A stretch of 64,000 bases of DNA from Candidatus Fraserbacteria bacterium (lineage in GTDB: Bacteria; Bipolaricaulota; Bipolaricaulia; RBG-16-55-9; DRXL01): the NCBI GenBank assembly GCA_947085185.1, contig CAMTVK010000019.1, forward strand, positions 13,892 through 77,891, given 5' to 3'. Positions 37,394 through 64,000 of the stretch are shown piece after piece. Both the position numbers and the translations under genes were made by a program. Each line of letters starts with the position of its first letter. Within the stretch, counting starts at the first letter, position 1. The notes beneath the pieces were generated by a model. The model was not told the DNA's origin, did not search any database, and saw only the letters and a program-made list of their open reading frames with translations.

Positions 37394-37422
37394 TTGACAA
37401 TGTGATTTTATTATGTTATAGT
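37394..37422 (+). promoter_or_regulatory. sigma70-type promoter TTGACA-N17-TATAGT
   Basis: TTGACA at 37394-37399 and TATAGT at 37417-37422. It precedes a 145-nt A-rich leader. Confidence 0.55.
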
Positions 37423-37568
37423 TATTATGTCTCTGAAAGGAGGTGCAGGAGCGCAGCCCAAAGACAAAGACAGTCCTGACAAAGGCAAACCGCGCGAAAG
37501 CGCGGGACGCAAAGCCACAGGCCTACGACAGTGCACACTGTTATCGGCGGCTGGGCTGCCAAAGGACC

Positions 37569-38087: not shown

Positions 38088-38152
38088 CCCCAGCACTTCT
38101 CGAGAGGCTTTCCCCTGCCAGAGGCCATCCCTTGGTATATCGTGTTTTCACC

Positions 38153-38181
38153 TTGACAGAGGTCTCAAGTTCGTGTATAGT
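38153..38181 (+). promoter_or_regulatory. sigma70-type promoter TTGACA-N17-TATAGT for the RHH regulator gene
   Basis: TTGACA at 38153-38158 and TATAGT at 38176-38181, followed by AGGAGG at 38204-38209. Confidence 0.55.
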
Positions 38182-38218
38182 ATATTATAGCACTCAACAG
38201 AGAAGGAGGAAGAAAGCC

Positions 38219-38542: not shown

Positions 38543-38556
38543 TCGAATAACTCTCT

Positions 38557-40226: not shown

Positions 40227-43200
40227 ATGCACAAGAGGGCCATAAATATTATCGGGCTGATCACGGTGGGATGGAGCTGGCTGGGCACCGGCCAGGTGAT
40301 GATCACCCCTCCTGCGGCTCCGCCGATCGCCGGCCCCGGCGATGCCCTCACCCTGCCGTTTCACGTGAAAAATACCGGCCCAGAAAGAGATATGTTCGAG
40401 TTCTCTCTCGAAATGTCTGCGGGGCTTGAGCCGCTGGGGACGCCCGAGCCAGTTGAGCTTGACCCCAATGCCGCAGAGACTGTTTTCGTCAGCGTCTTCG
40501 TCAGCACGAAAGCCCGCGCGGGAGAGGGAAGCGTCACCCTGAAAGCCCGGTCACGAAAGAACCCATCCCTGACAGGTCAAGCTACGGTGATAGTGACCGT
40601 CAGAGCATCTCCTGGGCTGGCCCTGAGCGCTCCCCCGGCCAAGACGGTCGAGCCAGGCCGCGCTGACTCCCTCGTCTTCATCGTGCGCAACACGGGCAAT
40701 GTGCCGGATCGTGTGGCGTTCTCCACACAAACTACGGGTGCTCTGAAAGCGCAAGCACCCACGGACGAGATCCCGCTTGACGTCGGCGAGCGCCGTGAGG
40801 TACGAGTCGAAATCTCCGTGCCTAAGGGCGCTCCGCCGGTGCGCCAGCGCGTCACGCTCACAGCCCTCTCCAAAAAATTTCCAAACGTCTCCGCTGAAGC
40901 TACGGCGGTGCTGGAGATCTTGCCGCCCTTGCCCCAAGAGGTGGGCGGCTCGCTCTTTTTGACGATCCCCTCCGAAGTACAGTTTCAATTCGACGGCCAG
41001 ACAGGAGCGACGTTAGGAGCTTTTATCACGATTACTGAGCGAGGCGGCGTGCTGGTCCCTGAGCCGCCGGCAGTGCGCCTCGACGTCGGAGGAACCTTGA
41101 CTGTGAATAATACGAGCCCCGTGGCGATCACGGTGACCGTGTCCGATGGGCGACCCCCCGTGAGCATCCCGTCGGGGGGAAGCAGCTCTTTCGCTTTCCC
41201 AGTCTCCGGAATCTTTACTGTGACTTTCAGCAACGGGGCTCTCATCTCTTCTGTGGGCTTCGTGACCGTGCACGATATAATCTTCCGACAGAGGCTCAGG
41301 GGGGGCGGTGGCACGAGCCCTCTCAGCACCCAGCAGAACGTCCTCACGCGCGACGCTCGCTATGCTTGGCCAAGGCGCGAGCCCTCTGAACGTTTTCAAG
41401 AGATCTCTTATCTGCTCGATATTCAGAATCTCTTCGAGCTCAATGCGCTCTTCTTTGCCCTCGATGGGAGCCCCCTAGGAGTGACCTTGGGCGATCTCTA
41501 TCTCCCGGTGGGTGTGCTGGCGACCCTGGCCGGGCGCGGCGGCCAGCTCATTGTGCACCCAGGGATTTTCAGCACAAGACTCTCGCTCTCGGCTACGGCC
41601 GGCCGACGTGCCCTCCCCGAACTCGCATTTTTGATCACCGATGACCCAGCCGAGCTGCCCTCTGCAGGAGTCGTCAGCCTGAATCAGCCCGTTCGGTTTC
41701 GCAACGTCGGGCTTCTCCCCCATACAGTCACGATTGCCGGCTCCGGGACGATAACGCTTGCGCCAGGGCAGTCGTTCGTCTATCTCTTCAGCACCATCGG
41801 ACAGATCACTGTTACGATAGATACAACGCCTGTGGTCTTTCTCGTGATTGCCGAAGCGTTCTGCAGTGCATCGTTTCTCTTCTGTCTTGGCGCTGAAGGG
41901 CAAGGCTCGCCCATCCCCGGCGTGACGGTAGGCCAGACCGCGCTCTTTGGGTATACTCCCAGTCCGAGCCTGACGACGACGCTCATCAACCGGGTGCGCT
42001 GGCAGATCCCCGGCGGCAGCGCCACGACCGTCGAGGGTGGGCTCACTTGGCAAAACGGGACTCTCTTAGATTCTGCCCTGCGCGCCAGCTCGGAGCTGCG
42101 CTTTGGCGACTTTTTCGTGGTCGCAGAATTTCTCCGGGCCGGCCGGGATTTCGTGGGTGACCGCCGCGATGAACAGAGTATTCAGATCTTTCAAGCGTTC
42201 TCGAGCACAAACTTTTCCGTGGGTCTCAGCTTTGGGCGCTCGCACAACAACGTCAATGCCGATCCCCTGCAGCAGACGCTGACCCGCCAGGATGCCCGCG
42301 CCGCGCTTCGTCTCAAGATCTCCGAAGTGCTGCCTACGATCAAGCTCGCCACAGCCTATAGCACGTTGGTGGGAACAGGCCCCTTGCCCCCTACAGATAT
42401 CGCACGGTTCTCCATCACGGCACAAGCGACCCAGCCCATTGGCCAGCTTGGGGATATCTCCGTCTTTACCGAGCAAGCCCGAATCATCAACGCTGTCGCA
42501 GGCACCGATATCGGCTTTGGCACGGTGGGCAGCGATTTCTCTCTCAGACTGACGGAGCTGCGCGCCTCGCTGCGCTTCGAGCACCGCTCCGAGGTCGATC
42601 TCCTCTCGAGCGCTCTGCTGAGCCGGACGCTTATAGCTTCAGCGGGGATGGAGCTGGTGCGCCGCCCGTTCGGCGTGCGCCTAGGGATCACGCGGTTTGC
42701 TCAACGCACGGATCTGAGCGTGGGCCTCCAAGCCCAGCTGGGGATCGCTGAGCTCTTCTTCTCTAGCTTGATAGGGCTGCTCGATCTGGGCGGGGCAGAC
42801 TTCAGCTTTGCGCTCGCCTTCTTGGTGCGCTTTGATGCCCCGATCCCGTTCCTCGTCGTCAAGGGGCAAGTTGAGGGCTTCGTCTTCATAGATACAAATA
42901 AGAACACTCAGCGCGACCCCAACGAGACTGGGCCAAAAGATCTCATCCTCACGTTGGGCAATGAAAAAGCTCGCACCGACGCGCGCGGGTTCTTCAGATT
43001 CCCCCCGATGCCCACAGGAACATACGAGCTCAAGATCGAAAAGCTTCCCCTAGGGATCATCGTCAAGACAGAACTCCCTAAGAAAATCCAGATTGTCGCG
43101 GGGCAGACTCTGAAGATCGAGGTCCCCCTGGCCCAAGTCGCAGTGATCGAAGGGCTGGTCTTCCACGACGAGAACCGCAACGGTCAAGTAGATTCTTCAG

Positions 43201-43718
43201 AGCAAGGGCTCAGCTCTGTACGGATCTTCTTGACGGATGCGACGGGCAAGACTCGCGAGCAACGTACGGATCTTGATGGGCGCTTCGCGTTCAGCGAGCT
43301 GCTTTCGGGAAGGTACACGGTCGCTCTCGACGTGCGCAGTCTTCCGGAGAATTTTGTGCCGACGACCCCGGCAGAAGTCGTGGTGGAGCTGCGCCCCCAG
43401 GAGCAGATCACTGTGAACTTTGGGGCAGCTGAGCGCGAGAAGATCGTGAAATTCCCGCCGGTGGCAGAGTTCACGTTCTCCCCGCCACGCCCCACTGTGG
43501 GCCAGACCGTGACTTTTGACGCTTCAGAATCGTTCGATCCTGATGGACAGATCGTCAAGTATGAATGGGACTTTGAGAGCGACGGGACGATAGACGCTCA
43601 AGGGGTTGTAGTCGAGCACGTCTTCACCCAAGCGGGGACATTCACGGTGACGCTGAGTGTGACAGATAACGATGGCCAGACAAGCACGGCACGAAAGACC
43701 ATCACGGTGAGGCCGTGA
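40227..43718 (+). CDS. giant surface adhesin-like protein (CARDB-like repeats, central beta-rich region, SdrD-B/CnaB-like repeats, C-terminal PKD)
   Basis: Signal peptide. N-terminal HVKNTGPERD and IVRNTGNVPD are CARDB-like. GLVFHDENRNGQVDSSEQGLSSVRIFLTDATGKTREQRTDLDGRFAFSEL is CnaB/SdrD-B. The C-terminal VTFDASESFDPDGQIVKYEWDF...TFTVTLSVTDNDGQTS is PKD. Confidence 0.7.
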   Translation: MHKRAINIIGLITVGWSWLGTGQVMITPPAAPPIAGPGDALTLPFHVKNTGPERDMFEFSLEMSAGLEPLGTPEPVELDPNAAETVFVSVFVSTKARAGEGSVTLKARSRKNPSLTGQATVIVTVRASPGLALSAPPAKTVEPGRADSLVFIVRNTGNVPDRVAFSTQTTGALKAQAPTDEIPLDVGERREVRVEISVPKGAPPVRQRVTLTALSKKFPNVSAEATAVLEILPPLPQEVGGSLFLTIPSEVQFQFDGQTGATLGAFITITERGGVLVPEPPAVRLDVGGTLTVNNTSPVAITVTVSDGRPPVSIPSGGSSSFAFPVSGIFTVTFSNGALISSVGFVTVHDIIFRQRLRGGGGTSPLSTQQNVLTRDARYAWPRREPSERFQEISYLLDIQNLFELNALFFALDGSPLGVTLGDLYLPVGVLATLAGRGGQLIVHPGIFSTRLSLSATAGRRALPELAFLITDDPAELPSAGVVSLNQPVRFRNVGLLPHTVTIAGSGTITLAPGQSFVYLFSTIGQITVTIDTTPVVFLVIAEAFCSASFLFCLGAEGQGSPIPGVTVGQTALFGYTPSPSLTTTLINRVRWQIPGGSATTVEGGLTWQNGTLLDSALRASSELRFGDFFVVAEFLRAGRDFVGDRRDEQSIQIFQAFSSTNFSVGLSFGRSHNNVNADPLQQTLTRQDARAALRLKISEVLPTIKLATAYSTLVGTGPLPPTDIARFSITAQATQPIGQLGDISVFTEQARIINAVAGTDIGFGTVGSDFSLRLTELRASLRFEHRSEVDLLSSALLSRTLIASAGMELVRRPFGVRLGITRFAQRTDLSVGLQAQLGIAELFFSSLIGLLDLGGADFSFALAFLVRFDAPIPFLVVKGQVEGFVFIDTNKNTQRDPNETGPKDLILTLGNEKARTDARGFFRFPPMPTGTYELKIEKLPLGIIVKTELPKKIQIVAGQTLKIEVPLAQVAVIEGLVFHDENRNGQVDSSEQGLSSVRIFLTDATGKTREQRTDLDGRFAFSELLSGRYTVALDVRSLPENFVPTTPAEVVVELRPQEQITVNFGAAEREKIVKFPPVAEFTFSPPRPTVGQTVTFDASESFDPDGQIVKYEWDFESDGTIDAQGVVVEHVFTQAGTFTVTLSVTDNDGQTSTARKTITVRP

Positions 43719-52512: not shown

Positions 52513-53058
52513 GTGCGTGCGCGACTTATAGGAATCTCTCTAGTGCTCGGATTGATCGTGCTCTTCTGGTACGTTGGACTCTACCGCCGCCCCAATCAGC
52601 TCCCCTCAGTCCAGACTCCATCCCCTTCTTTCAACGCCAGCCAGCCTCACATAGTAGCTCTTGCTGCTCCAGCAAGCCCGCCATGCCCCCACGATACGAC
52701 CGACAACGGCATGCTGCGCGTGCGCGTGCGCGCCGTCAGCACCACCCAACAGATCGGCTTCTGGAGGCTCGATCCAGATCGTCGCTTTGTGATTATCGAG
52801 GTCTTCTTAGAAGCGATCACGGATTTTCAGCTGGCCAGCTCAGCCGTGCTCTGGCTGGAAGAGCCCGACGGCACGGAGCGCACTCGCAGCGTCGCTACCG
52901 GGGCGCTGGCTCGCCCGTTGCTGTCGCTCAGCCCCGCACGGGGCGAAGGCGTCGGCGGCCAGGTCGCTTTTGAGATCAGCGCCCAGACCCGTGAGGTCAA
53001 ACTCCACTATGACCCGTTCTTAGCGCGTCGACTCACTCTGTGCGTGAGCGTCCCGTAA
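52513..53058 (+). CDS. secreted/membrane-anchored hypothetical protein (DUF4352-like)
   Basis: N-terminal transmembrane segment followed by a beta-rich domain. No catalytic motif. Confidence 0.4.
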   Translation: MRARLIGISLVLGLIVLFWYVGLYRRPNQLPSVQTPSPSFNASQPHIVALAAPASPPCPHDTTDNGMLRVRVRAVSTTQQIGFWRLDPDRRFVIIEVFLEAITDFQLASSAVLWLEEPDGTERTRSVATGALARPLLSLSPARGEGVGGQVAFEISAQTREVKLHYDPFLARRLTLCVSVP

Positions 53059-53115
53059 GTGTATAACCCCAGGCTACGCCGTCCCCGACGAGTGCGCCCA
53101 CAGATCCCCCAAAGA

Positions 53116-54252
53116 CTAACTCACTGTCGCAAAGACTTCGAGCGCCGCGCGCACCCCAGCCCCAAGCTCGAACTTGTGCCCAAGCTTGCGCAACACGAGC
53201 TCTAATGCAGCGATCGTCCCCAGCACGTCCTTGGCACCAATATCCCCGATGTGCCCAATCCTGAAGATCTTGCCCTTGAGATGATCTTGCCCACCGGAGA
53301 TCTTTATCCCAAAATCTGTGCGCAACGTCTCTAAAATCTCTTTACTGCTCAGGCCCTGGGGAACAGAGACAGCCGTGCAGACCGGCCCCGGCCGCTCACT
53401 GAACAACTCAAGATTCATAGCCAAGACCGCCGCTCGCGTCGCGCGTGCGTACAGCTCCGTGCGCGCCTGCAAGCGCTCCACCCCCTCTTCTAAGATCATA
53501 GTGAGCGCTTCGTCAAGAGCCATGATCAGAGAGATCGCGGGAGTGAAGGGCGTGAAATAGAGATTCTTCTTGGCCGTCTTGAAATCCCAATAGTACTTGG
53601 GCAGATCGGATCTGTCAACGCGCCCCCAGGCTCGCGCGCTCACGCTCACGAACGCCACCCCCGGCGGGACCATCAACGCCTTCTGTGACCCCGCAACGAC
53701 ACAGTCTACCCCCCACCGATCGGGCTCCAACGGCACCACCCCCAAGCCGCTGATCGCGTCTACTACAAGGAGCACGTCGCGCTCATTCGTGATTTGCGCG
53801 ATCTTCTCGATATCGTAGACCGTCCCTGTGGAAGTCTCCGACAGCTGGGTGAAGACCGCGCGGACTTTGGGATGGGCGTCAAGGGCTTCTTCTATCTGCT
53901 CGGGGTGCACAGCCCTCCCCCACTCAATCTGAACTGTATGGTGCTTCACCCCAAAAGCTTGGCAGAGCTCGCGCCAGCGCTGCCCAAACTTGCCGCCCTC
54001 CACCACGAGGACCTCATCGTTGGTGCTTACGAGATTGGTGATACACGCCTCCATCGCCCCGGTGCCCGAGGACGTAAAGTACAAGATTGTATTTTGGGTG
54101 CGGAAGACTTGCTTGAGCTTGGCATCGACTCTCTGCAAGAGCTCGGCGAACTCCTCCCCGCGATGATAGATGATCTCTTGGCTTTCGGCAAGAGCCACAC
54201 GGCGCGGGACGGTGACCGGGCCTGGGACCAGCAAAAAGTCGCGTTTGGGCAT
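53116..54252 (-). CDS. class V aminotransferase (alanine--glyoxylate/serine--pyruvate type)
   Basis: MPKRDFLLVPGPVTVP...SSGTGAMEA...VVAGSQKAL (PLP lysine context). Confidence 0.8.
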   Translation of the reverse strand: MPKRDFLLVPGPVTVPRRVALAESQEIIYHRGEEFAELLQRVDAKLKQVFRTQNTILYFTSSGTGAMEACITNLVSTNDEVLVVEGGKFGQRWRELCQAFGVKHHTVQIEWGRAVHPEQIEEALDAHPKVRAVFTQLSETSTGTVYDIEKIAQITNERDVLLVVDAISGLGVVPLEPDRWGVDCVVAGSQKALMVPPGVAFVSVSARAWGRVDRSDLPKYYWDFKTAKKNLYFTPFTPAISLIMALDEALTMILEEGVERLQARTELYARATRAAVLAMNLELFSERPGPVCTAVSVPQGLSSKEILETLRTDFGIKISGGQDHLKGKIFRIGHIGDIGAKDVLGTIAALELVLRKLGHKFELGAGVRAALEVFATVS

Positions 54253-54339
54253 AGGGCCTCCTTCTGCATCCTCATCCCGACACAAAGAAGGGAGAGGATA
54301 CGGGGGTTAGGTCTCAGTCTACACCATCGCATGGGAAAC

Positions 54340-54369
54340 TTGCAACCGAGAACTTCACACTGTTATAAT
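54340..54369 (+). promoter_or_regulatory. sigma70-type promoter for the S8 protease operon
   Basis: TTGCAA at 54340-54345, then TATAAT at 54364-54369 (18-nt spacer). Confidence 0.45.
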
Positions 54370-54384
54370 CGAGCACGTTGAACT

Positions 54385-56658
54385 GTGCACAAGCGAGAGG
54401 CAGAGACTAGAGTGATTCGGTTACGATCGGACAGTTGGGTGCTTCTGTGGGGTGTGCTCGTTGCGGCTCTCGTGCTCTGGAGCGCCTCGTCTTCACCCCC
54501 TGTGAGTTCAGAGTTAGGGATTCCAAGCCCCCAGGCGGAACCGGGAGGAACTCCGTATGCCAAACTCGATCCGTTCTTGCGACTTTTGGCAAATCGCGTG
54601 CACCGCGATCCCTCGACGGACCTTGCGCGCTTTGCCCCAATGGTCGCAGTCTATAGCGCTCCTTCTTATGCCCCGCTCGCTGCGCAAGGAGACGAACCAC
54701 GACTAGGCGTCTTGATCAAAACGAGGGCACCCCTCTCACGGGTGTGGTCTGTCACCCCGCTCACGCGAGATCTCGCCCTCGCCCGCGTCACCCTCGATGA
54801 GCTGAGAGAACTGGCGCAGCTCCCAGAGGTCGTCTTCATCGAAGCGAGCTATCGTTTAGAGCCGCACATCGATAGGAGCGTTCCTGCGGTGGGCGCTCGC
54901 TCTCTGCACAAGATGAGCCCCCAAGCTACGGGCAGGGGCGTCATCGTCGGCATGGTGGACACGGGGATAGATTGGACGCATCGGGATTTTCGCACCGATC
55001 GCGACGGCGACGGCTTCGAAGAGTCCTCGCGAGTTCTTTGGTTATGGGATCAGACGGAGACGGGGACCTTCGGCAGCCCGCGCACAGTCCCGTTCGGCAC
55101 TGAGTACACCAAAGAAGAGCTCGAGAGAGCGCTGCGCTCAGGGATGGGCATTGTCAATGGACGGGACGAGTCCGGCCACGGCACCCACGTCACCGGCATC
55201 GCTGTTGGAGATGGCTCGTCCTCCGGGGGAACGTTTGTGGGCATGGCCCCAAACGCCGAGATCATATTTGTCAAGACGAGCTATTTCAGCACCGATATTG
55301 TCGAAGGGGTTCGATATATCTTCGACAAATCTGAGTGGCTCGGCAAGCCCGCTGTGGTCAATCTGAGCTTGGGCGGACACTTCGGGCCGCACGACGGCAC
55401 AAGTCTGTTTGAGCAGAGCTTGGAAGCTTTTCTCGAGCGTCCCGGTCGCGCCATCGTCGCCTCTGCAGGCAACGACGGCGACCAGAAGATTCATATAGGG
55501 AGACAGCTGCGTCCCAAAGAAGCATTTACGTTTGCGTTCGTCCCCACAGGGGAGACGGCGTATGTGAACATTTGGTATTCCGGCACGGCGAATTTTACCG
55601 TTGCGGTGACGTCGCCGGGGATCAACGGGCCGCCTCAGACGGTGCTGGCGTTGCGCGGCCAGGGGGAGTTCCAAAACACCCCCGACGGCTCCGTCGAGAT
55701 CGATAACGCCGGAGGTGGGCTCGACCCGCGCAACAGAGATCGAGCGATTGCGATCTCACTGGAGCGCGCGCCGCCCAACTCATCATGGTATATTACTCTG
55801 ACAGACCAAGGGGGCACGGGGGGCAGATTCGACGCCTGGCCGGGGCTCGCTTCCATGGGGTACTTCCCCGAAGGCGACGCACTCTCGACGATCACTGAGC
55901 CGGCAACGGCGAAAAAGATTATTGCCGTTGGGGCATACACGACGAAGATCTTTTGGACCGGGGCCGACGGTCACCCCCATCGCTTCACGGACGCCCCAAG
56001 CGAAGGAGAGCTGGCGCCCTTCTCGGCGCGCGGGCCAACCCGCGACGGACGTCTCAAGCCCGACCTGACCGCCCCAGGGACGGCCATCGTCTCGGCGCTC
56101 GCGAAGAACTCTGAAGTCTCTCAGAGCACCAAGCTCGTCCTGCCAGGGGGAGACTACGTGGCCATGCAGGGGACATCTATGGCTGCGCCGCACGTCGCCG
56201 GAGCTATTGCGTTGCTCTTGCAAGCGCAGCCCCATCTGACGGCCGAAGAGATTCTCCGTCAGCTCACACGGACGGCCCTGCACGATGCGTTCACCACGGA
56301 CCCCAGGGCGTGGGGCGCGGGCAAGCTCCAGATAGACCGGGGCTTCGAGACGCTTGGGCTGCAAGATCAATTGAGTGCCAATCGTCCGGCCCTCAAAATC
56401 GGCCCCAACCCCGCAGTCCGATCCGTGACGCTCTTCTACGCGACCGTGGGCAGCCCGCGCACGGTCGAACTGATGGTCTTCGATCTTGTGGGAAGGCTCG
56501 TCTATAAGCGAGAACTCCCCGCGCAAGGGCAGCGCTTCCAATGGACGCTGCAGGACTTAGAGAATAGACCCCTTGCCCCAGGACTCTATCTCATTGTCGT
56601 GACCGCCGATGGCCGACCTAGTACCCCTTATCCCTTGGTCGTGCGCAGATCACAATGA
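54385..56658 (+). CDS. S8 subtilisin-family peptidase with C-terminal FlgD-Ig/T9SS-CTD-like domain
   Basis: Signal anchor. Catalytic triad in DTGIDWTHRDF, HGTHVTGIAVG, and GTSMAAPHVAGAIALL. The C-terminus is VELMVFDLVGRLVY...GLYLIVVTADGRPSTPYPLVV. Confidence 0.85.
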   Translation: MHKREAETRVIRLRSDSWVLLWGVLVAALVLWSASSSPPVSSELGIPSPQAEPGGTPYAKLDPFLRLLANRVHRDPSTDLARFAPMVAVYSAPSYAPLAAQGDEPRLGVLIKTRAPLSRVWSVTPLTRDLALARVTLDELRELAQLPEVVFIEASYRLEPHIDRSVPAVGARSLHKMSPQATGRGVIVGMVDTGIDWTHRDFRTDRDGDGFEESSRVLWLWDQTETGTFGSPRTVPFGTEYTKEELERALRSGMGIVNGRDESGHGTHVTGIAVGDGSSSGGTFVGMAPNAEIIFVKTSYFSTDIVEGVRYIFDKSEWLGKPAVVNLSLGGHFGPHDGTSLFEQSLEAFLERPGRAIVASAGNDGDQKIHIGRQLRPKEAFTFAFVPTGETAYVNIWYSGTANFTVAVTSPGINGPPQTVLALRGQGEFQNTPDGSVEIDNAGGGLDPRNRDRAIAISLERAPPNSSWYITLTDQGGTGGRFDAWPGLASMGYFPEGDALSTITEPATAKKIIAVGAYTTKIFWTGADGHPHRFTDAPSEGELAPFSARGPTRDGRLKPDLTAPGTAIVSALAKNSEVSQSTKLVLPGGDYVAMQGTSMAAPHVAGAIALLLQAQPHLTAEEILRQLTRTALHDAFTTDPRAWGAGKLQIDRGFETLGLQDQLSANRPALKIGPNPAVRSVTLFYATVGSPRTVELMVFDLVGRLVYKRELPAQGQRFQWTLQDLENRPLAPGLYLIVVTADGRPSTPYPLVVRRSQ

Positions 56659-57455
56659 GATACTTACTCTGTGTGGTGAGCATAGCGCTGCTAGGCACAC
56701 CCAGTCAGGCTGTGCCTATCATCTTGGAGATGGGGACAAGCGCCCGTGCTGTGGGGATGGGTGGAGCGTTTACAGCGATCGCCGACGACGAGAGCGCGGT
56801 CTTCTATAATCCCGCGGGCCTGGCGTTTCTCGGCAAACTCACAGTTTCCGCATTCTATCAGCGTGCGTTTGACGTCGTGCATCATATAGCGCTGACCGCG
56901 GCGTCGTCCGGCTGGGGCGCTCAGTTCATCCGCATAGATACAGGCCCCCTGGAGAGCACCAACGAGTTCGGCAACCCCTCCGGGGAACCGATGCCATACG
57001 CCAGCCAAGCGGGTTTGGTAGGGATCGCGTTCGGGAGAGAGTATATGGCTCTGGGGCTGCGCGGAAAGCTCTCAAGCGATGGCACTGAGACTTCCTGGGG
57101 TCTGGACGCGGGGGCATTGGCGCGGCTTGGGGGGCTGCGCGTGGGGATAGTCGCGGAAGATCTTCTGGGAATGGCGGAGTTATCTCTTCGGGCTGGGATG
57201 GCGCTTGAAGTAGAGTTGAGCCCACGCATAGCCGTGACTCTAGCTCTGGAGGGATGGAATCTCTTAAGCAGTCCGGAGCTGCATCTTGGGCTGGAAGTCT
57301 CGGTGAACGGCGTGCACATTCGAGTTGGTTATGACGGCGTAGCTGTTATCACTGGAGCGGGGGCGCGATGGAACAGCATCCGGCTTGATTGGGCGTATCG
57401 GATGCATCCCCAGCTGCCCGCTTCTGCTATTGTTACGGTCGCGTATCTGTTCTAG
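56655..57455 (+). CDS. short outer-membrane beta-barrel protein with FadL/PorV-like N-terminal hatch motif
   Basis: ATGA overlap with the S8 stop. Signal peptide. GMGGAFTAIADDESAVFYNPAGLAFL matches the FadL-family NPA hatch. The C-terminal ...VTVAYLF ends in Phe. Confidence 0.55.
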   Translation: MRYLLCVVSIALLGTPSQAVPIILEMGTSARAVGMGGAFTAIADDESAVFYNPAGLAFLGKLTVSAFYQRAFDVVHHIALTAASSGWGAQFIRIDTGPLESTNEFGNPSGEPMPYASQAGLVGIAFGREYMALGLRGKLSSDGTETSWGLDAGALARLGGLRVGIVAEDLLGMAELSLRAGMALEVELSPRIAVTLALEGWNLLSSPELHLGLEVSVNGVHIRVGYDGVAVITGAGARWNSIRLDWAYRMHPQLPASAIVTVAYLF

Positions 57456-57469
57456 AGAAGGAGGACGCT

Positions 57470-60400
57470 ATGGGGAATCGTATCGTAAAGCTCTTGCTCT
57501 ATCTTGTGATCGGGGTGGTGGTGACGGCCAGCTCTCAAGAGCGACCTCCCCATGAAGAGACGCTCTCGGTGAGTTACTCCGGCGAACTAGGGTGGACGAT
57601 CAAGTATGGTCTGGGGGACTCGCGCGAGCTCTCCCGACGCGGCTATGCCAATCAAGTGCTCTTCGAGCAATATGTCGCGCTGACGCTGGATGCTGGAGTC
57701 CAAGTGGACTGGCCCATCTCTGGGGTTTTGCGCGTCAGTGCCCAACTGGACAACCGCAAAGCCAATAACTTACAGAGCTTCAAGATGGGGTACAAAGCCC
57801 AGGCTCTTGAGGCCGCGTTTGAAGATTTCTCGATGCGGGCGGGCAGCTCCGACTTTGTCGCCACAGAGAGACTGCTCAAGGGGCTGCGCTTTAGCTGGGA
57901 TATCTCAGACACTATGAAGCTCTCCGGGAAATTCGCGCGTGTGGAAGGGATCTCCGAGTCGCGCATCTTTCGCGGCAACACCAGCCGACAGACCGTGGAA
58001 TTCACTCAACAAGACCCAGCTGCACCTTGGCTCGAAGCCCCCTATCAGACAAATCTGAAAGGGCTCGAATACTTTCAGCTCCACAGCTACGTCCCCGGTT
58101 TCACGACCGTCTCGATGCGCTTTGCGCTGACGCCGCAGCTGCGCGCCCTGCTCACCAATTACGGCTTAGACTATCTCATCGAGACTATTGAGAACGATCC
58201 CGAGCCGGAGCTCGATGCGACGCTCTATGATGTCATAAGCGAGAACGGCTCGAACTTTCTTGTGCTCAAGCGCCCAGCCCTAGAGATATTGCGCGATCAG
58301 ATCCGCACATACATTGAAGACTACAACGATGAGCATAATCTCTTCGATGAGAACGCCAAAGAATATCCCCTCGGCGAAGGGACCGACTACGAACAGAGCT
58401 TTCTGAAGAGCGTGAGCAAGCTTGTCGCGCTGACGACCTCCGATGAGGCGTTCCCTCTCGATAGCGCCAAGCGCGGACGCTTCTTCTCTCTGGGGCGCGA
58501 GAGCGTCAAAGAAGAGACGTTGAAGCTCGAGATCAAGCGCCAAGGGAGCTATATTCAGATTCCCGATCCCGATCTGCCTCAATTTCAGTTCACACTCTTT
58601 GCCGAGCAAGGGATTGTGGCGCTCGATTTCCCCGAAGAGTTTTTCGCCAACCCCCAAAGCGCTGTACGCATCACGTTCGACTACACCGTGCCGGGGGGCT
58701 TATATGTGCTGGGGCTGGCTGTCTTACAGAACAGCGAACGCGTCTATATCAAGCGCGAAGGCGAACAAGAGTATAAATTATTGCGACGCGATCAAGACTA
58801 TCAGATAGACTACGAGACCGGAGCACTGTTGCTCTTGCCCCCTTATGATGTGCTCGGCGACAAAGACGAGCTGAAGATCGAATACGAGCTGATGCGAGGC
58901 GGTCTGGGGGGCTTCGCTGAGCATCAGCGCGTCTTCACGGGGCTTTCGTACCAATGGACGCCATGGCCGTCCTTGAAGATCTCTCTCGATGCGCTGCGCG
59001 CCTTTGATACCCCCGCATCTGCCGAGAACCGGGATCGCCTGCGCACCATGCCCAATACCCATTCGGTCTTGGGAATGGCCGCTCAACTGAACTTGGGCGA
59101 TCTCCAAGCTGATCTCAAACTCGGCTACACTGAGAATATCTTCCCTACGGTGCCGTTCAGTGGCGCCAAAGCGTATCACACCAACGAGAGACTCAACCAA
59201 CGCAATCGCATTAACGTCATTGCGGGGGTCACGTTTGAAGGGCGGCGGGTGACGTTGATTGGGCATCAGAACGGGTTGCTCGTCTACGACGGCTCGCGCT
59301 GGCAGAGCTTCACCACGGCCCAGGGGCTATCCGGGCGCGGGGTGCGTGCCATCGCGGTGACGAGAAATACTGTGCTTGTGGCCACGGACTCCGGACTCTC
59401 GATGGTGAAGCTCGAGCCGGGACGCCCCGTGCTCGAAAGCTTCGCCAAGCCCATCAATTGGAGGCGTTTTTATAGCTTAGACGGCCTGCCCCATAACGAG
59501 ACGTACGATCTCTTGATTGACCGATCGGGCACAGTATGGGTGGGCACCAAGGAGGGTCTGGCTCGTGTCCCATTCGCTCAGATCACCGAGAAGACTGCCT
59601 GGAAGACCCTCAAAAAGAGCGCTATCTCGGGGTTGCGCAGCGATCTCATCACGAAGATCCTCAGCGATGGGACACGGCTCTATCTTGGCACAGATAAAGG
59701 GCTCGTGCTCTACGAGCCTGAGACGGGGCGCTCCGTCGAAGTCGCGGAGCTGCGCGGCCAAGTTATTCGAGATCTCGCGCTGTCGGGGACGACGGTCTAC
59801 GTTGCGACCGACCGTGGGATCTATGAGCTGACGGATGGTTTTGAGGTGGGCTGGCGCGTCAAAGACTTAAAAGTCTATGCGCTCGCCGTGCAGGGCACAG
59901 AGTTATGGTACGGCACGGAGATCGGGCTCTTTCGCTTGAGCTCTGATGTCCCTGTCATTCAAGAGTATGCAATCACTGCGATCGAGAAGAACGCCCGTGC
60001 GGAGCATCTGTGGGTTGGCCCGCGCGCTTCATCTACATTTGAGATGCCCTTGTGGAAGATTGATCCTTCCGGGAGCGTGAAAACATACTCTCAAGCCGAG
60101 ACACGCTTGAACGGACGAGATGAGTTTCGCTTTGAAGATATATCTCCTGACAAGAACACCGATCATGGCTGGCTGGCGCAGCTCTCGGCACAGTACAAGA
60201 TAGGCGCGTTAGAGCTCAGGGCACTGCTCGAGCGCATCACCCCGGAATTTCTCGCTATCGGTCAGGAGAGCCGCCAAGACGCACAACGCCTGACGCTCAG
60301 CGCCCAATGGCCCCTCTCGCCGACTCTGTCGCTCTCAGGCGATCACGTGATGAGCGTAGCGGGGGGCTGGCGCACCTTCGTCATGACCGATACCGTGCGT

Positions 60401-61594
60401 GCTCAGTGGACTCCTTGGGCCGGCGGCCCTCGGCTCAGCGGGACGCTCGCGCTGGAGCTCACCGACCGAGATCTCTCCGATCGCGCTACCGGATTCGATA
60501 TGACGAAGATCACTCTCACCTTCAAGGGCGATCACAAGATAGTCGGGTTCTTGCCCTTCACGCAAGAGCTCACGGTCGGGGCGACTTATGACGGCCTTTT
60601 GACGCTGGCGCGCCTGGGGCGCTCGCTGCTGGACTCCAAAGTAGGGCTGAATATCGGGCTGGCCCTCACTCCCAGCCTCAAGCTGCGCGGCTCGCTCACG
60701 GGGGCGCAGCGCCTCCCTGGAGACTCCGATCTCACTTACACCCTCGGCGGCGACTGGCAGTATACTCTGAACTTTGGGCAGCTCACGACAAGCTATACCC
60801 AGACGACGCGCCTGCGCGGTGGGCGCGGCTCGTTCGACGAGAGCGCTTCAGTCAATCTGCGCCTTAGCGACTTTACGCTCGCTGACGTCAAGCTCTCCCC
60901 AACGCTCACTCTCTCAGGGCGGCGCACGGCGCTTCTGGGCAGTACGCCCCCCAGCGGGACGCTCACGCTCTCTTTCGAAGGGCGCGCCCTCGGCCAATGG
61001 CAGGCGCTCTCCGGATCGCTCCTCACTCGGATGTCGCTCTCGTCAGACGTGCGCACATCCCGAGACTCGCTCAAACAAGAGTTCACGGGCTCGTTCGCCT
61101 GGGCGCTCAGCCCGCAGCTTGCGCCACGGGTCGAGCTGGGGCTGGTGCTGGATACGCTGAGCCATCCGACGCTGGGGCGCAAGCAGACGCTCCGACCGCG
61201 CGCCAGACTCTCGGTAGATTGGACCCCCCAAAGTCTCTGGAAGACCAGCGCTGATCTGTTCTGGCAGATGACCCTCAGCGAGCGCGAGCGCACCAGCACG
61301 TATGAGATCGGAAGTCGAGCTTCGTGGGACCCACTTGATGAGCTCTCGCTGAGCCTAGACGCCCGAGTATCGCTCGATACGCGCCTGCGCGATACCAAGC
61401 CCCTAAGCGCGACGACCTGGGAGGTGACGCTCCAGGGCGACTACGAACTTGGCACATTCTGCGCTCCCACCCTTGAGGGCAGCGATTGCACATTTTCGGC
61501 TCTGCTGGGGTATTCAGGTCGGCTGGACCAAGGGGTCGCTGTGCCCTTCGGACAAGGGCTCTTTCTCCGAGCTCAGCTGGGCTTGAACTTCTAA
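57470..61594 (+). CDS. giant (1375 aa) outer-membrane protein: beta-rich barrel-like regions flanking a Reg_prop beta-propeller; C-terminal Phe
   Basis: GAAGGAGG ribosome-binding site before ATG 57470. Signal peptide. Central repeats TVWVGTKEGLARV, RLYLGTDKGLVLYEPETG, TVYVATDRGIYEL, and ELWYGTEIGLFRL are Reg_prop-type. A long amphipathic beta region ends ...LRAQLGLNF. Confidence 0.6.
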   Translation: MGNRIVKLLLYLVIGVVVTASSQERPPHEETLSVSYSGELGWTIKYGLGDSRELSRRGYANQVLFEQYVALTLDAGVQVDWPISGVLRVSAQLDNRKANNLQSFKMGYKAQALEAAFEDFSMRAGSSDFVATERLLKGLRFSWDISDTMKLSGKFARVEGISESRIFRGNTSRQTVEFTQQDPAAPWLEAPYQTNLKGLEYFQLHSYVPGFTTVSMRFALTPQLRALLTNYGLDYLIETIENDPEPELDATLYDVISENGSNFLVLKRPALEILRDQIRTYIEDYNDEHNLFDENAKEYPLGEGTDYEQSFLKSVSKLVALTTSDEAFPLDSAKRGRFFSLGRESVKEETLKLEIKRQGSYIQIPDPDLPQFQFTLFAEQGIVALDFPEEFFANPQSAVRITFDYTVPGGLYVLGLAVLQNSERVYIKREGEQEYKLLRRDQDYQIDYETGALLLLPPYDVLGDKDELKIEYELMRGGLGGFAEHQRVFTGLSYQWTPWPSLKISLDALRAFDTPASAENRDRLRTMPNTHSVLGMAAQLNLGDLQADLKLGYTENIFPTVPFSGAKAYHTNERLNQRNRINVIAGVTFEGRRVTLIGHQNGLLVYDGSRWQSFTTAQGLSGRGVRAIAVTRNTVLVATDSGLSMVKLEPGRPVLESFAKPINWRRFYSLDGLPHNETYDLLIDRSGTVWVGTKEGLARVPFAQITEKTAWKTLKKSAISGLRSDLITKILSDGTRLYLGTDKGLVLYEPETGRSVEVAELRGQVIRDLALSGTTVYVATDRGIYELTDGFEVGWRVKDLKVYALAVQGTELWYGTEIGLFRLSSDVPVIQEYAITAIEKNARAEHLWVGPRASSTFEMPLWKIDPSGSVKTYSQAETRLNGRDEFRFEDISPDKNTDHGWLAQLSAQYKIGALELRALLERITPEFLAIGQESRQDAQRLTLSAQWPLSPTLSLSGDHVMSVAGGWRTFVMTDTVRAQWTPWAGGPRLSGTLALELTDRDLSDRATGFDMTKITLTFKGDHKIVGFLPFTQELTVGATYDGLLTLARLGRSLLDSKVGLNIGLALTPSLKLRGSLTGAQRLPGDSDLTYTLGGDWQYTLNFGQLTTSYTQTTRLRGGRGSFDESASVNLRLSDFTLADVKLSPTLTLSGRRTALLGSTPPSGTLTLSFEGRALGQWQALSGSLLTRMSLSSDVRTSRDSLKQEFTGSFAWALSPQLAPRVELGLVLDTLSHPTLGRKQTLRPRARLSVDWTPQSLWKTSADLFWQMTLSERERTSTYEIGSRASWDPLDELSLSLDARVSLDTRLRDTKPLSATTWEVTLQGDYELGTFCAPTLEGSDCTFSALLGYSGRLDQGVAVPFGQGLFLRAQLGLNF

Positions 61595-61596
61595 GT

Positions 61597-62715
61597 ATGT
61601 CGTTTGTGAGCTTAGTGTTGAAGAATCTGTGGCGCCAGAAGGTGCGCAGTCTCTTGGCGATCGCCGGGATCAGCTTGGGGATCGCGACTATGATCGCGTT
61701 GGGGGCGATCGCCGACGGCCTAGAGTATAGCTTAATCGCGACGCTGCGCTCGGGGAGAGCAGACTTCTCTATTGGGCAAGCCCACGCCCCCATGATCGTG
61801 CTCAGCTCGGTCCCTGAGGCGCGACTCTATGAGATCCAGCGCTGGCCGGAGATCCAACAAGCCGTTGGGGCGCTCGTGACGTTCGCGAGCTTCCCTGGGA
61901 ACCCGTATTTCTTAGCGATCGGCATCGAGCCCGATGCGTTCGAGCTGGGCGGCGTCATTCTCTTAGAAGGGCGCGCGTTCTCCCAGTACGCCGAAGACGA
62001 AGTGCTCCTAGGGAAGAGCGCCGCGAACACCCTCAAACTAAAGCCCGGCGACGCCATCGAGATCGACCGAAAGACTTTTCAGGTCGTTGGGATCTACGAG
62101 ACGGGCAATCTCCTCGAAGACGGCGGCGCGTTGTTCCCCTTGCGAACGCTTCAGAACCTCAAGAATCGCCCTGCGGAGCTCACGGTCATTCTCGTGCGCG
62201 TGCGGGAGGGCTTCGCCATCGAAGACGTGATGGCTCGGGTCGAGCGCGAGTATGGGGGCGCGCTCATCACGCTGCGTTCTGCTGCAGAGTTTCATAAAAA
62301 CTATCAGAGTTTGAGCTTGGTGCGCGCGGGCACTTGGCTGATTGCGCTCTTGGCGCTGGTGATCGGCGGGATCGGCGTGATGAACACGATGATCATGTCT
62401 GTTTTTGAGCGCACGCGCGAGATCGGGATTCTTCGAGCCGTGGGCTGGCGGCGCGTGCGCGTCTTGCAGCTCATCTTGGGGGAATCGCTCTTGTTGGGGG
62501 GCATCGCAGCGCTTGTCGGGACGCTGCTGGGCTGGGGAGCCGCGCGCGCCGTGACGCTCCTGCCTCAAGTACGCGGGCTGATCGGTCCGCTCTACACGCC
62601 CGATCTGTTCGCCAAGGCCCTGCTCATCGCGCTCATTGTTGGGCTGGTGGGTGGACTCTACCCAGCCTATCGCGCTGCGAAGATCTCCCCACAAGAAGCG
62701 TTACGCTATGAGTGA
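61597..62715 (+). CDS. FtsX-family ABC permease, MacB/LolE type (4 TM, large periplasmic domain)
   Basis: ATG lies 2 nt after the preceding stop. MSFVSLVLKNLWRQKVRSLLAIAGISLGIA, then a periplasmic domain of about 200 aa, then three C-terminal transmembrane segments. Confidence 0.8.
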   Translation: MSFVSLVLKNLWRQKVRSLLAIAGISLGIATMIALGAIADGLEYSLIATLRSGRADFSIGQAHAPMIVLSSVPEARLYEIQRWPEIQQAVGALVTFASFPGNPYFLAIGIEPDAFELGGVILLEGRAFSQYAEDEVLLGKSAANTLKLKPGDAIEIDRKTFQVVGIYETGNLLEDGGALFPLRTLQNLKNRPAELTVILVRVREGFAIEDVMARVEREYGGALITLRSAAEFHKNYQSLSLVRAGTWLIALLALVIGGIGVMNTMIMSVFERTREIGILRAVGWRRVRVLQLILGESLLLGGIAALVGTLLGWGAARAVTLLPQVRGLIGPLYTPDLFAKALLIALIVGLVGGLYPAYRAAKISPQEALRYE

Positions 62716-63388
62716 ACAGATGGTCATCGCGCGCGACCTTGTGAAGACCTACGAAGGCGGGCGCATCCGCGCCCTCGACGGCGTCAGCTTAGAGATCTTC
62801 TCGGGAGAGTTTGTGGCGATCTGCGGCCCGTCGGGATCGGGCAAGAGCACGCTTCTTCATCTGCTTGGGGCTCTCGATAGCCCCGACTCGGGAGAGCTCT
62901 GGGTTGCAGGGGAAGACCTCGCTCACAGTCGCGGGGACTTGGCGCGCTTCCGCGCGCGCAAGGTCGGATTTATCTTTCAGCTGCATAATCTCATACCGTC
63001 GCTGACGGCGCTCGAAAATCTCTTGATCCCGACGCTTGAGCTCAATCACTCGCGCCGCGACGCCCACGCGCGCGCTCACAGACTCCTAGAGCGTGTGGGG
63101 CTGGCGGACAAAGCCCACCGGCGTCCTCCAGAGCTTTCGGGAGGTGAGAGACAGCGCGTCGCTGTCGCCCGAGCCCTCGTCAATGATCCTGCACTTGTGC
63201 TCGCCGACGAACCCACAGGGAGTCTCGACTCAAAGACAGAAAAACACGTGCTCGATCTACTGAAAGAGCTGCGTGCCGAGCGTGATGTCACCCTGATCTT
63301 AGTGACGCACGACCCGCGGGTCGCTCAGCACGCCGATCGCGTCCTTGAGCTTTGGGACGGTCGGATCAAAGCCCCAGTTGTCTCTTAA
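62708..63388 (+). CDS. ABC transporter ATP-binding protein (MacB/LolD type)
   Basis: Overlaps the permease by 8 nt. [38 protein letters not shown]. Confidence 0.9.
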
Positions 63389-64000
63389 GGATCTTTTCGA
63401 AGACCCCTTCAGGCAGGAGCCTGCGCAAGGGCAAGACCGTACGGGCGTCGCGCCCCACGGGATAGCGCAGCTTGGGATTGGGATTCTTTATCGCGCGATA
63501 GATCGTCTCGGCGACTCGCTCTGGAGGCGCCGCACGAGAGATTCTGCGCAGGCGTCGGCCGCTGGCTTGCTTGAAGATCGCATAAGGAGAGCTCTCATTC
63601 TGGGCGGCTTGGGCCAGTTGCACGTTCTCCTGAAAATTCGTAGCGATAAACCCTGGCTCAATCAGAATGACTTTGATATTCCAAGGAGCCAGCTCGTAGC
63701 GTAGCGTCTCCGTTAGCCCCTCGAGAGCGAACTTGCTCGCCGTGTACGGCCCAGAGAAGGGGATGGCCATTCTGCCCAAGACCGAACTGATATTGACGAT
63801 CGCGCCCGATCTGCGCGTGCGCATGTGGGGAAGCACAGCGTGCGTGACGCGAATGACCCCGAAGAAATTCGTCTCAAACTGCCTCTTCCATTCGTCGAGG
63901 GAGACCTCTTCAACGGCGCCGTGCAGCCCATAGCCAGCGTTGTTAACGAGCACGTCAATCCGCCCGCTCTTTTGAAGAACCTTCTCGACGGCTCTCTGCA
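63366..64000 (-). CDS. SDR-family oxidoreductase (partial, N-terminus beyond the window end)
   Basis: NNAGYG, YTASKFALEGL (YxxxK), in frame through 64000. Confidence 0.7.
   Translation of the reverse strand, partial: QRAVEKVLQKSGRIDVLVNNAGYGLHGAVEEVSLDEWKRQFETNFFGVIRVTHAVLPHMRTRRSGAIVNISSVLGRMAIPFSGPYTASKFALEGLTETLRYELAPWNIKVILIEPGFIATNFQENVQLAQAAQNESSPYAIFKQASGRRLRRISRAAPPERVAETIYRAIKNPNPKLRYPVGRDARTVLPLRRLLPEGVFEKILKRQLGL

Follow-up and report, generated by a model that had tools for sequence, protein, structure and literature searches.

Type IX secretion systems (T9SS) require a PMF-driven GldLM/PorLM motor together with a PorKN ring, and in the Bacteroidota the gene for their giant outer-membrane translocon, sprA, is usually separate from those of its partners. 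The phylum Bipolaricaulota is deep-branching and has been placed near the Thermotogota. Type IX secretion has been described as confined to the Bacteroidota or to the FCB superphylum, and as dependent on a large apparatus of motor and ring (e.g. PMC7463736, PMC10202324). The Bipolaricaulota, for their part, are atypical diderms that have a toga-like outer membrane and no LPS genes (PMC6092417; bioRxiv 10.1101/2025.11.21.689855). We have analysed a 64-kb stretch of DNA (64,000 nucleotides, hereafter the window) from a member of Candidatus Bipolaricaulota (OP1/Acetothermia), which carries an operon of five genes. Our interpretation is that genes 1–3 are probably a small equivalent of the type IX secretion translocon, compact and complete in itself, that serves export or surface display. 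The three parts are homologous to the type-A C-terminal domain (CTD), to PorV and to SprA, their order is conserved, and CTD proteins are paired one-to-one with PorV-like barrels.

Layout of the operon and the secreted subtilase

The five open reading frames lie on the + strand with tight junctions, as the original prediction had claimed, and profile searches with Pfam and curated models returned the domains that it had assigned to each of them. The predicted sigma-70-like promoter TTGCAA-N18-TATAAT, which has an extended -10 TG, was found where it had been reported (54340–54369, + strand, by consensus match) and, with 10 of 12 positions and the TG extension, outscored every other promoter-like sequence on the + strand in a scan of 11 kb from 53000 to 64000. 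Gene 1 (54412–56658, + strand; 748 aa) starts with a GTG at 54412 that has a GAGAGG Shine–Dalgarno sequence, an alternative GTG being present at 54385, and its end forms an ATGA overlap with gene 2 (56655–57455, + strand; 266 aa). The gap between gene 2 and gene 3 (57470–61594, + strand; 1374 aa) contains the expected ribosome-binding site, GAAGGAGG, and measures 14 nt, not the 15 nt first given. Gene 4 (61597–62715, + strand) follows gene 3 after 2 nt and overlaps gene 5 (62708–63388, + strand) by 8 nt, and a terminator-like hairpin is located at 61543–61559, immediately upstream of the gene 3 stop. As read from the translations, each of the products of genes 1, 2 and 3 carries a signal peptide, and Phe is the C-terminal residue of both barrels.

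The gene 1 product matched Peptidase_S8 (PF00082) at 1.7e-48, which places it among the S8 subtilases, and consists of a Sec signal peptide, a propeptide, an Asp/His/Ser catalytic triad and a C-terminal sorting domain. D183, H256, S589 and the oxyanion Asn, N354, are invariant across eight orthologues, and the enzyme is predicted from its sequence to be an active secreted subtilase. The sorting domain, a T9SS type-A-like CTD of ~90 aa (56371–56655, + strand), was recognized by TIGR04183 (Por_Secre_tail) with 24.0 bits for the whole protein and 29.3 bits for the isolated domain against a cutoff of 23, so that the T9SS-CTD-like tail originally proposed for the protease stands. The same model matched 17 of 18 related CTDs, all situated at the true C terminus; the model of the PorU C terminus (NF033707) matched 16 of them and TIGR04131 a single one. 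A profile built from these domains had the PorU CTD (6za2_A, 1e-8) as its best PDB match, and PKD-type proteins encoded at other Bipolaricaulota loci end in the same CTD as gene 1. On the evidence of these profiles, the predicted tail of gene 1 is a CTD of type A or of the PorU type.

The two outer-membrane barrels

At its N terminus the gene 2 product carries the hatch motif GTSARAVGMGGAF..NPAGL, and at its C terminus a Phe beta-signal. It matched the PorV family model NF033709 (PorV_fam) at 2e-16 over its N-terminal 94 residues only, and the score of 60.5 bits lies below the cutoff of 90; the curated threshold of the PorV/PorQ family (NF033709; PF19572) was thus not reached, PorV and PorQ equivalog scores were far under their cutoffs, and profile searches detected the FadL N-terminal motif as well. 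Modelling with AF2 (pLDDT 92.7) gave a 14-strand FadL-type barrel with an N-terminal hatch that is closest to PorV: the top Foldseek matches were PorV 8gl6_F (E 5.8e-12, TMq 0.75) and 6h3i_F, with OmpG and FadL ranking behind at ~1e-6 to 1e-7, and the profile of the gene 2 family aligns collinearly with PorV 6h3i_F. By its modelled fold, then, gene 2 encodes a PorV-like barrel, and the hatch barrel of FadL or PorV type that had been predicted agrees with the family match, the FadL motif and the model alike. PorV/PorQ-family barrels are widespread outside the T9SS phyla, for example in Elusimicrobiota and Zixibacteria, and the PorV-like barrels of Bacteroidota BAM complexes are found among the Foldseek matches of gene 2 (ranks 24 and 35); a PorV-like fold alone is therefore no proof of a carrier role.

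Gene 3, which we refer to as ‘mini-SprA’, encodes a giant outer-membrane beta-barrel protein of roughly 150 kDa, the ‘1.4-kDa-scale’ of the original prediction being a slip. Its AF2 model (pLDDT 84.7) has ~38 strands as assigned by DSSP, the barrel being put at ~36–38, and the protein is, like SprA/Sov (~36 strands), a giant barrel made from a single polypeptide. The best four PDB matches of this model in Foldseek were all SprA (E down to 3.7e-18, TMq 0.55), whereas non-SprA barrels reached a TMq of no more than 0.29. When the gene 3 family was aligned by hhalign with the SprA family, whose profile had been validated on the solved SprA structure 6h3i_A (2.1e-241), residues 31–565 (57560–59164, + strand) were matched over 477 columns (probability 99.8 %, E 3.6e-28). 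This homologue of the SprA N-terminal/cap part comprises the first barrel strands and an alpha/beta insert and is the best-conserved part of the gene 3 family; within it, residues about 180–485 may correspond to the SprA cap region, a correspondence that is only suggestive. A second match, collinear with the first, paired the C-terminal barrel (residues ~895–1374; 60152–61591, + strand; ~25 strands by DSSP of the model) with the C-terminal end of the SprA family (probability 94.1 %, E 1.2e-7). SprA exceeds gene 3 in length by about 1000 aa, and the window protein itself was matched by neither TIGR04189 nor PF14349, so remaining below the curated SprA/Sov thresholds. Distant members of its family do match TIGR04189 directly but weakly (21–30 bits against a cutoff of 200), and a bridge protein, P0288, scores 145 bits against the same cutoff. 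Common ancestry with SprA/Sov is detectable by profile–profile comparison, and the homology of gene 3 to the T9SS translocon, though distant, is clear.

The strand order of the model places a Reg_prop-type beta-propeller (residues ~576–874; 59195–60091, + strand) between the barrel strands, where it would be extracellular. Pfam Reg_prop matched gene 3 at 8.8e-6, and the family profile matched the propellers of Bacteroides HTCS sensors (4a2l, 5.7e-31) and of PorZ (5m11, 1.3e-3).

The identity of the two barrels bears on readings in which they play no part in secretion. Peptides released by the subtilase could be taken up through the giant barrel in the manner of RagAB/SusCD, with the small barrel acting as a FadL-like hydrophobic channel; yet it is SprA and PorV, not TonB-dependent transporters or FadL, to which the barrels are specifically homologous, the same barrels are paired with CTD cargo that is not a protease, and the domain search found neither a TonB box nor a plug-domain signature, all of which makes nutrient uptake highly unlikely. 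A structural or biogenesis role, with gene 3 anchoring a toga or S-layer like SlpA of Deinococcus and gene 2 serving as a BAM-associated PorV-like subunit, sits poorly with the sequence homology of gene 3 to SprA. No SLH domain was found in the domain search, and the gene 3 family is both rare, with 102 clusters in a set of 1.84 billion representatives, and always linked to CTD-cargo genes; we regard such a role as extremely improbable.

Conservation of gene order and the MacB-type transporter

The triad of CTD cargo, PorV-like barrel and mini-SprA, in that order, is complete in 20 of the 24 species-level Bipolaricaulota loci, the flanks of which are otherwise unrelated, and in 20 of the 24 an orthologue of gene 1 immediately precedes the small barrel. 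The order is repeated, with different cargo, in a Bacillota MAG and at one locus of unknown taxon. Although the S8 protease is the commonest cargo adjoining mini-SprA, PKD-type CTD proteins are paired with PorV-like barrels ten more times beside mini-SprA genes (in loci L001, L009, L023, L024, L025 and L028), and some mini-SprA loci (L025, L028 and L036) have PKD-type CTD cargo only, with no S8 gene. For the S8 protease and the ten PKD-type cargo genes alike, each CTD-protein gene has a small barrel gene of its own immediately after it. Taken with the SprA homology, the modelled PorV fold and the type-A-like CTD, this synteny, which extends to the Bacillota MAG, strongly supports the core of the original suggestion, in which a PorV-like shuttle was combined with a large translocon and CTD cargo. 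The predicted conservation among relatives holds across the 24 loci for the three-gene order, not for the order of all five genes.

The same data invite comparison with an attachment complex, in which the S8 protease and the PorV-like barrel would act like the PorU–PorV surface sortase or processing protease and a PorZ-like propeller would bind an anchor glycan, no translocon being involved. The resemblance of the CTD family to that of PorU, the Reg_prop type that the gene 3 propeller shares with PorZ and the frequency of the S8 protease beside mini-SprA are all in keeping with this idea, but it does not account for loci with PKD-type cargo alone, and the host lacks the LPS on which PorU and PorZ rely as an anchor (PMC6092417). 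An attachment function is, moreover, compatible with a translocon role for gene 3 and no replacement for it, and as an explanation in its own right we consider it rather unlikely.

Gene 4 encodes a MacB-type (type VII) ABC permease, with matches to MacB_PCD (8.9e-25) and FtsX (4e-20), and gene 5 its ATPase partner (ABC_tran, 1.7e-35), whose Walker A, signature and Walker B motifs are intact in the translation; the nucleotide-binding domain is a polypeptide separate from the permease, for which there is a single gene. With 92.9 bits for gene 4 against lolCE (cutoff 362.45) and 251.3 bits for gene 5 against LolD (cutoff 307.75), the pair scores below the LolCDE equivalog cutoffs and so is not a canonical LolCDE. 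The HlyD/MFP adaptor gene is missing from the operon, as had been pointed out before, and neither a MacA/HlyD adaptor nor TolC was found in the operon or its flanks, so that the pair does not make up a MacAB–TolC tripartite system. Genes 4 and 5 are present downstream of gene 3 only where gene 3 identity is at least 76 % (9 of 24 species-level loci); they are absent from the Bacillota locus and from all 12 loci that fall below 62 % identity and extend 2 kb or more downstream. Since the pair adjoins gene 3 only in a close clade and never in the 12 distant loci, it is not a core part of the system. It was appended to the operon within one genus-level clade as a recent addition. Most probably it is an exporter that has nothing to do with the triad; at the most it would be an accessory peculiar to that lineage.

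This distribution tells against the MacB-type pump that was first thought to energize the system, that is, against a single envelope-spanning machine of all five genes in which the ABC transporter drives both barrels with ATP in place of the T9SS motor. MacB-type transporters are established mechanotransmitters, the junctions of the ABC genes with gene 3 and with each other are tight (the 2-nt gap and the 8-nt overlap) in the window and in close relatives, the arrangement is kept in nine species-level loci, and the window shows no other evident energizer. Nevertheless, the pair comes without an adaptor protein, a terminator-like hairpin precedes the gene 3 stop, and we know of no T9SS-type system with an ABC motor; we judge a five-gene machine to be decidedly unlikely.

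Our current working hypothesis is that genes 1–3 act as a translocon with its own carrier and cargo. The S8 subtilase would be exported by Sec, after which its type-A-like CTD would be recognized by the PorV-like barrel of gene 2, itself docked on the SprA-like barrel of gene 3, the three forming a physical complex. The protease would pass the toga-like outer membrane through the gene 3 barrel and, displayed at the cell surface, either remain on its PorV-like carrier or be released from it. There it could digest proteins for a peptide-fermenting host and possibly process other CTD proteins, which, each having its own PorV-like partner gene, probably share the same mini-SprA. Genes for a GldLM/PorLM motor or a GldKN/PorKN ring were not seen among the ~50 large open reading frames of the 64-kb window, so that either the motor lies elsewhere or the system works differently. 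We tentatively raise the possibility, without favouring it, that in deep-branching diderms without LPS (Bipolaricaulota and Limnochordia-like Bacillota) SprA, PorV and CTD work on their own as a system of three genes, with neither GldKLMN/PorKLMN nor attachment to A-LPS. If that is true, the three-gene system would be either the ancestral core on which the Bacteroidota T9SS was built or an ancient lateral offshoot, and a giant barrel with its carrier would be the smallest unit able to carry out type IX secretion.

Comparison with known systems

Genes 4 and 5 resemble the type VII ABC transporters of MacAB–TolC and LolCDE in combining a MacB_PCD and FtsX permease with an ABC ATPase, but they differ from the former in having neither a MacA/HlyD adaptor nor TolC and from the latter in scoring below equivalog thresholds, and their conservation does not follow that of the triad. 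The triad itself recalls the PorU–PorV/PorQ–PorZ complex of Porphyromonas gingivalis (PMC12365241), where, as here, a protease with a PorU-type CTD adjoins a PorV-like barrel and a Reg_prop-type propeller is present. In place of a C25-type cysteine sortase, however, the Bipolaricaulota locus has a predicted serine protease of the S8 subtilase family, the propeller is, in the model, built into the translocon barrel instead of being a separate protein as in PorZ, and there is no A-LPS to which cargo could be attached. In systems with type-B CTDs and PorP/SprF-like carriers, such as SprB–SprF (PMC9143113, PMC12618676), the same gene logic of one cargo and one carrier is seen, but the CTDs described here are of type A or PorU type by their profile matches (TIGR04183, 17/18; TIGR04131, 1/18) and the barrels are PorV/PorQ-like and not of the PorP/SprF kind.

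Homologues of all three components of the SprA–PorV–type-A CTD core of Flavobacterium johnsoniae (PDB 6H3I, 8GL6; PMC10994853) are present at this locus: a single-chain barrel of ~36–38 strands related to SprA in fold and sequence, a 14-strand barrel that is PorV-like in its modelled fold, and a Sec-signal cargo with a type-A-like CTD of ~90 aa. Unlike F. johnsoniae SprA (~2400 aa), gene 3 has 1374 aa and falls below the curated SprA thresholds, and at the position of the SprA middle region it has the Reg_prop propeller. The SprA-type relatives examined for comparison were stand-alone genes, whereas here, in contrast to the Bacteroidota T9SS, the three genes form one operon. GldKLMN, SprE, SkpA, PPI and Plug genes were not seen near the locus. 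The hosts also differ, being Bipolaricaulota without LPS, and additionally a Bacillota MAG, in place of members of the FCB group.

What is new is an operon-encoded, half-size relative of SprA, accompanied by a PorV-like carrier and tagged cargo, outside the FCB group. It widens the known range of T9SS-like systems to a very different type of envelope (that of an LPS-free phylum and of a diderm-type Bacillota MAG), gives a probable role to ~100 large outer-membrane proteins of one family, so far ‘hypothetical’, and explains how the toga could come to display proteases and PKD-type proteins. For studies of structure and mechanism it also supplies a far smaller translocon, and one with which it can be tested directly whether a translocon can work without the known motor.

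The gene triad and its downstream ABC pair

The original prediction read five adjacent genes as an envelope machine energised by a MacB-type pump, and its open reading frames, their junctions and its domain calls were confirmed from the sequence and with Pfam and NCBIfam. All five lie on the + strand. Gene 1 (54412–56658), which comes first and encodes an S8 subtilase, has a GTG start preceded by GAGAGG, with an alternative in-frame GTG at 54385; gene 2 (56655–57455), encoding a small PorV-like barrel, overlaps it by ATGA; gene 3 (57470–61594), encoding a giant barrel of 1374 aa referred to here as mini-SprA, follows after a gap that contains GAAGGAGG and measures 14 nt, not the 15 nt first given; and genes 4 (61597–62715) and 5 (62708–63388), the permease and ATPase of a MacB-type ABC pair, begin 2 nt after gene 3 and overlap each other by 8 nt. 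A promoter-like TTGCAA-N18-TATAAT at 54340–54369 (+) is the top-scoring + strand site of its kind in the surrounding 11 kb, and the upstream neighbour (class-V aminotransferase) and the downstream one (SDR) are both on the opposite strand. Taken together, the junctions, the promoter-like site and the orientation of the flanks make a single transcription unit plausible in this genome. A terminator-like hairpin at 61543–61559 (+), composed of GCCCTTCGGACAAGGGC and then TCTTTCTCC, lies within the final 50 nt of gene 3, ahead of the ABC genes, and could attenuate read-through into genes 4 and 5; with 12 such sites found in the region versus 7.3 ± 2.6 expected, their number does not clearly exceed chance.

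Synteny was followed in seven independent contigs with homologues 31–77% identical to gene 3 and in 24 species-level genome loci scanned with an HMM for each gene. All three genes, in the order S8 protease, small barrel and giant protein, were present in 20 of the 24 loci. Their flanks vary between lineages, the exception being a class-V aminotransferase gene found upstream in the window and in two related loci (L007 and L009). The ABC pair directly follows the giant gene in nine of the 24, all with gene 3 identities of 76% or more, and is missing from all 12 loci with identities below 62% whose downstream sequence extends for 2 kb or more. What is conserved is therefore a set of three genes (the triad), with the ABC pair a recent arrival beside them in a single clade; synteny thus upholds the triad and not the five-gene set.

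The ABC pair itself is intact, with MacB_PCD and FtsX domains in gene 4, ABC_tran in gene 5, and Walker A, signature and Walker B motifs all present. Identification as canonical LolCDE was rejected, as scores were below the curated cutoffs. No adaptor for the pair was found, nor were any GldKLMN-type genes present within the 64 kb window. An ABC-energised five-gene machine is unsupported, and we treat the pair, which is not conserved with the triad, as an appended exporter.

PorV-like barrels and their CTD-bearing partners

Gene 2 matches the PorV/PorQ family, UPF0164 and the FadL N-terminal motif (Pfam, NCBIfam), and its eight orthologues have in common the N-terminal motif G.SARA.GMGGAF..ADD..A..YNPAGL and a terminal Phe. 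AF2 modelled the protein (pLDDT 92.7) as a barrel of 14 strands with a hatch at the N-terminus; its closest PDB matches are to PorV within the T9SS translocon (8gl6_F, E 5.8e-12, TMq 0.75; 6h3i_F, 7e-11), ahead of OmpG and FadL, and the family profile matches PorV collinearly. Gene 2 is PorV-like in fold, but fold alone is no proof of a T9SS role, because the protein scores below the curated PorV_fam threshold (60.5 bits versus 90) and kindred 'PorV/PorQ family' barrels occur widely in other phyla, Elusimicrobiota, Zixibacteria and Calditrichota among them. Many barrels of this family in Elusimicrobiota and other non-Bacteroidota phyla (e.g. P0147, P0154, P0155 and P0166) are N-terminal TPR fusions, and the role of the family outside T9SS-bearing phyla seems little explored.

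In gene 1, a Peptidase_S8 domain is followed by a match to TIGR04183 (Por_Secre_tail) at 24.0 bits, against a cutoff of 23 (Pfam, NCBIfam). The final ~90 residues are conserved in all S8 orthologues, and an HMM of this C-terminal domain (CTD) finds it at the end of PKD-type proteins at other Bipolaricaulota loci. TIGR04183 is matched by 17 of the 18 CTDs examined, and the C-terminus of the PorU sortase model by 16; the nearest solved relative is the PorU CTD (6za2_A, 1e-8), then FlgD and then a T9SS substrate CTD. The tail of gene 1 is a type-A-like CTD.

A gene for a PorV-like barrel comes next, on the same strand, after every gene ending in this CTD, the sole exception being the S8 gene of L024. 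Ten further pairs, each a PKD-type CTD protein followed by a PorV-like barrel paralogue, occur on the − strand of six loci (L001, 14086–16094; L009, 15649–20306; L023, 9388–11447; L024, 9047–13663; L025, 6558–10816; L028, 9251–13819); many are arranged in tandem, and every pair is convergent to the mini-SprA gene and sits just downstream of it. L025 and L028 have such pairs, yet no S8 or small-barrel gene ahead of the giant gene. This arrangement mirrors that of type-B CTD proteins, in which cargo is paired with a cognate PorP/SprF-like carrier (PMC9143113, PMC12618676).

Relationship of gene 3 to SprA

The curated-domain content of gene 3 amounts to one Reg_prop repeat (Pfam, NCBIfam). This central beta-propeller is related to the sensor domains of Bacteroides HTCS proteins (4a2l, 5.7e-31), with a weaker relationship to PorZ; when the family HMM profile was searched against PDB sequences only these propeller matches were returned and SprA was not found. 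A propeller-deleted construct (residues 1–575 plus 875–1374) was modelled with 43 homologues at a mean pLDDT of 84.7, giving ~38 long beta strands in the order nine strands, an alpha/beta insert of ~300 residues, four strands, the propeller insertion point and ~25 strands. This modelled order would have both the propeller and the cap-like insert facing outward. The first four PDB chains matched by Foldseek were all SprA, the giant pore of the T9SS translocon (6h3i_A, E 3.7e-18, TMq 0.55; 8gl6_A, 6.9e-18, 0.52; 8gl8_A, 1.4e-17, 0.50; 6h3j_A, 5.4e-11, 0.40), with other membrane barrels at E 3e-7 or weaker and TMq no higher than 0.29 (SlpA best) and LptD at E ~1e-6 and TMq 0.16. BamA, TamA, LptD and TamB were rejected for want of any family match, in addition to the low LptD TMq, and an SlpA-type S-layer anchor was rejected on its TMq of 0.29 and the absence of an SLH domain.

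A chain of sequence comparisons leads to the same protein. In a phmmer search of 1.84 billion representatives with the construct, just 102 proteins were matched, among them a bridging protein of 1929 aa (P0288; E 1.4e-4), which itself matches TIGR04189, the SprA model of NCBIfam, at 1.2e-42; weak matches to the same region of that model also come from three long proteins of the gene 3 family. The alignment of P0288 and its relatives contains PF14349 proteins and one protein named SprA by JGI, and matches the solved Flavobacterium johnsoniae SprA over its whole length at 2.1e-241. Profile and profile–profile searches were required here, phmmer of P0288 against PDB having given no match. By hhalign, the gene 3 family aligns with the P0288 alignment over residues 31–565 (probability 99.8%, E 3.6e-28), with a second, collinear match in the C-terminal barrel (94.1%, E 1.2e-7). 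On the structural matches and this chain together, gene 3 is a true, very diverged SprA/Sov homologue, ~1000 residues shorter.

Distribution and a model for the triad

The close homologues of gene 3 are without exception from MAGs of Candidatus Bipolaricaulota, Acetothermia or Fraserbacteria, and distant members of the family are found in MAGs of Limnochordaceae and other Bacillota. A Bacillota MAG (GCA_014896355.1; L035, 1–12647) has the same order, a very large S8/PKD protein (called as 3445 aa, of which more than 2260 were read) whose C-terminus carries the same CTD (2.8e-18) preceding a PorV-like barrel (1.4e-44) and mini-SprA, and in L036, of unknown taxon, a different CTD cargo precedes the barrel and mini-SprA. 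In a Limnochordaceae MAG (GCA_014896305.1; L034, features at 313–5124 and 8224–10362, −), the mini-SprA copy is at a contig edge, its upstream genes unreadable, and a different S8 peptidase, which has a CarboxypepD_reg domain, is encoded on the opposite strand 3 kb downstream. Stand-alone genes encode P0298 (L037), an SprA-type relative, and P0254 (L038), the longest family member examined.

Bipolaricaulota are atypical diderms that have BamA-type genes but no LPS genes, with a toga-like outer membrane carrying an S-layer (PMC6092417; bioRxiv 10.1101/2025.11.21.689855). The remainder of the window is ordinary chromosome (dcw cluster, ftsA/ftsZ, dnaN, smpB, infC). It includes a surface-type protein of 1163 aa (40227–43718, +) with SdrD_B, CarboxypepD_reg, SpaA-like and terminal PKD domains and no CTD, preceded by three unannotated ORFs (36236–39588, +; 357, 214 and 343 aa) that have no Pfam match, and, at 12104–15903 (−), a PKD-like protein of 245 aa adjoining two further ORFs (430 and 392 aa) with no Pfam match, one of which (14725–15942) has a weak internal match to the CTD HMM (E 1.3e-5). 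A proteasomal-type AAA ATPase with Prot_ATP_ID_OB domains (6470–8245, +), along with Pup-ligase-family, proteasome and UBact genes in L007 (19608–24116), indicates a bacterial proteasome with UBact or Pup-like tagging in the phylum. In one Bipolaricaulota contig (L001), the triad and CTD proteins have an exosortase (EpsH family) gene and an XrtH-associated gene (22070–23186, −) within a few kb, so that a second protein-sorting system may exist alongside the triad.

We hold the homology assignments of genes 1–3 with high confidence, and an export or display function for the triad is somewhat favoured. Cargo bearing a CTD would be exported by Sec, its CTD would be captured by the PorV-like barrel on mini-SprA, in a complex proposed by homology, and the cargo would then presumably cross through the mini-SprA barrel, to be retained at the surface or released. 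The triad part of the original interpretation thus stands, now with homology evidence behind it, and its ABC-energised five-gene part does not. Published papers describe T9SS as restricted to Bacteroidota or the FCB group. Our search, whose incomplete literature coverage means that it is no proof, turned up no published account of SprA-like translocons from Bipolaricaulota, Limnochordia or Terrabacteria and nothing relevant on T9SS or SprA in Acetothermia; triad-type proteins are annotated in public records as 'hypothetical' or 'UPF0164 family'. We classify the locus as a compact, operon-encoded, T9SS-translocon-like module in a non-FCB, LPS-less diderm. In T9SS, PorV docks at the lateral opening of SprA, the CTD is bound by PorV loops within the pore and the substrate exits together with PorV (PMC10994853). 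Since the SprA, PorV and CTD parts of that translocon all have homologues here, encoded together, a compact form of the T9SS pathway is the most economical model.
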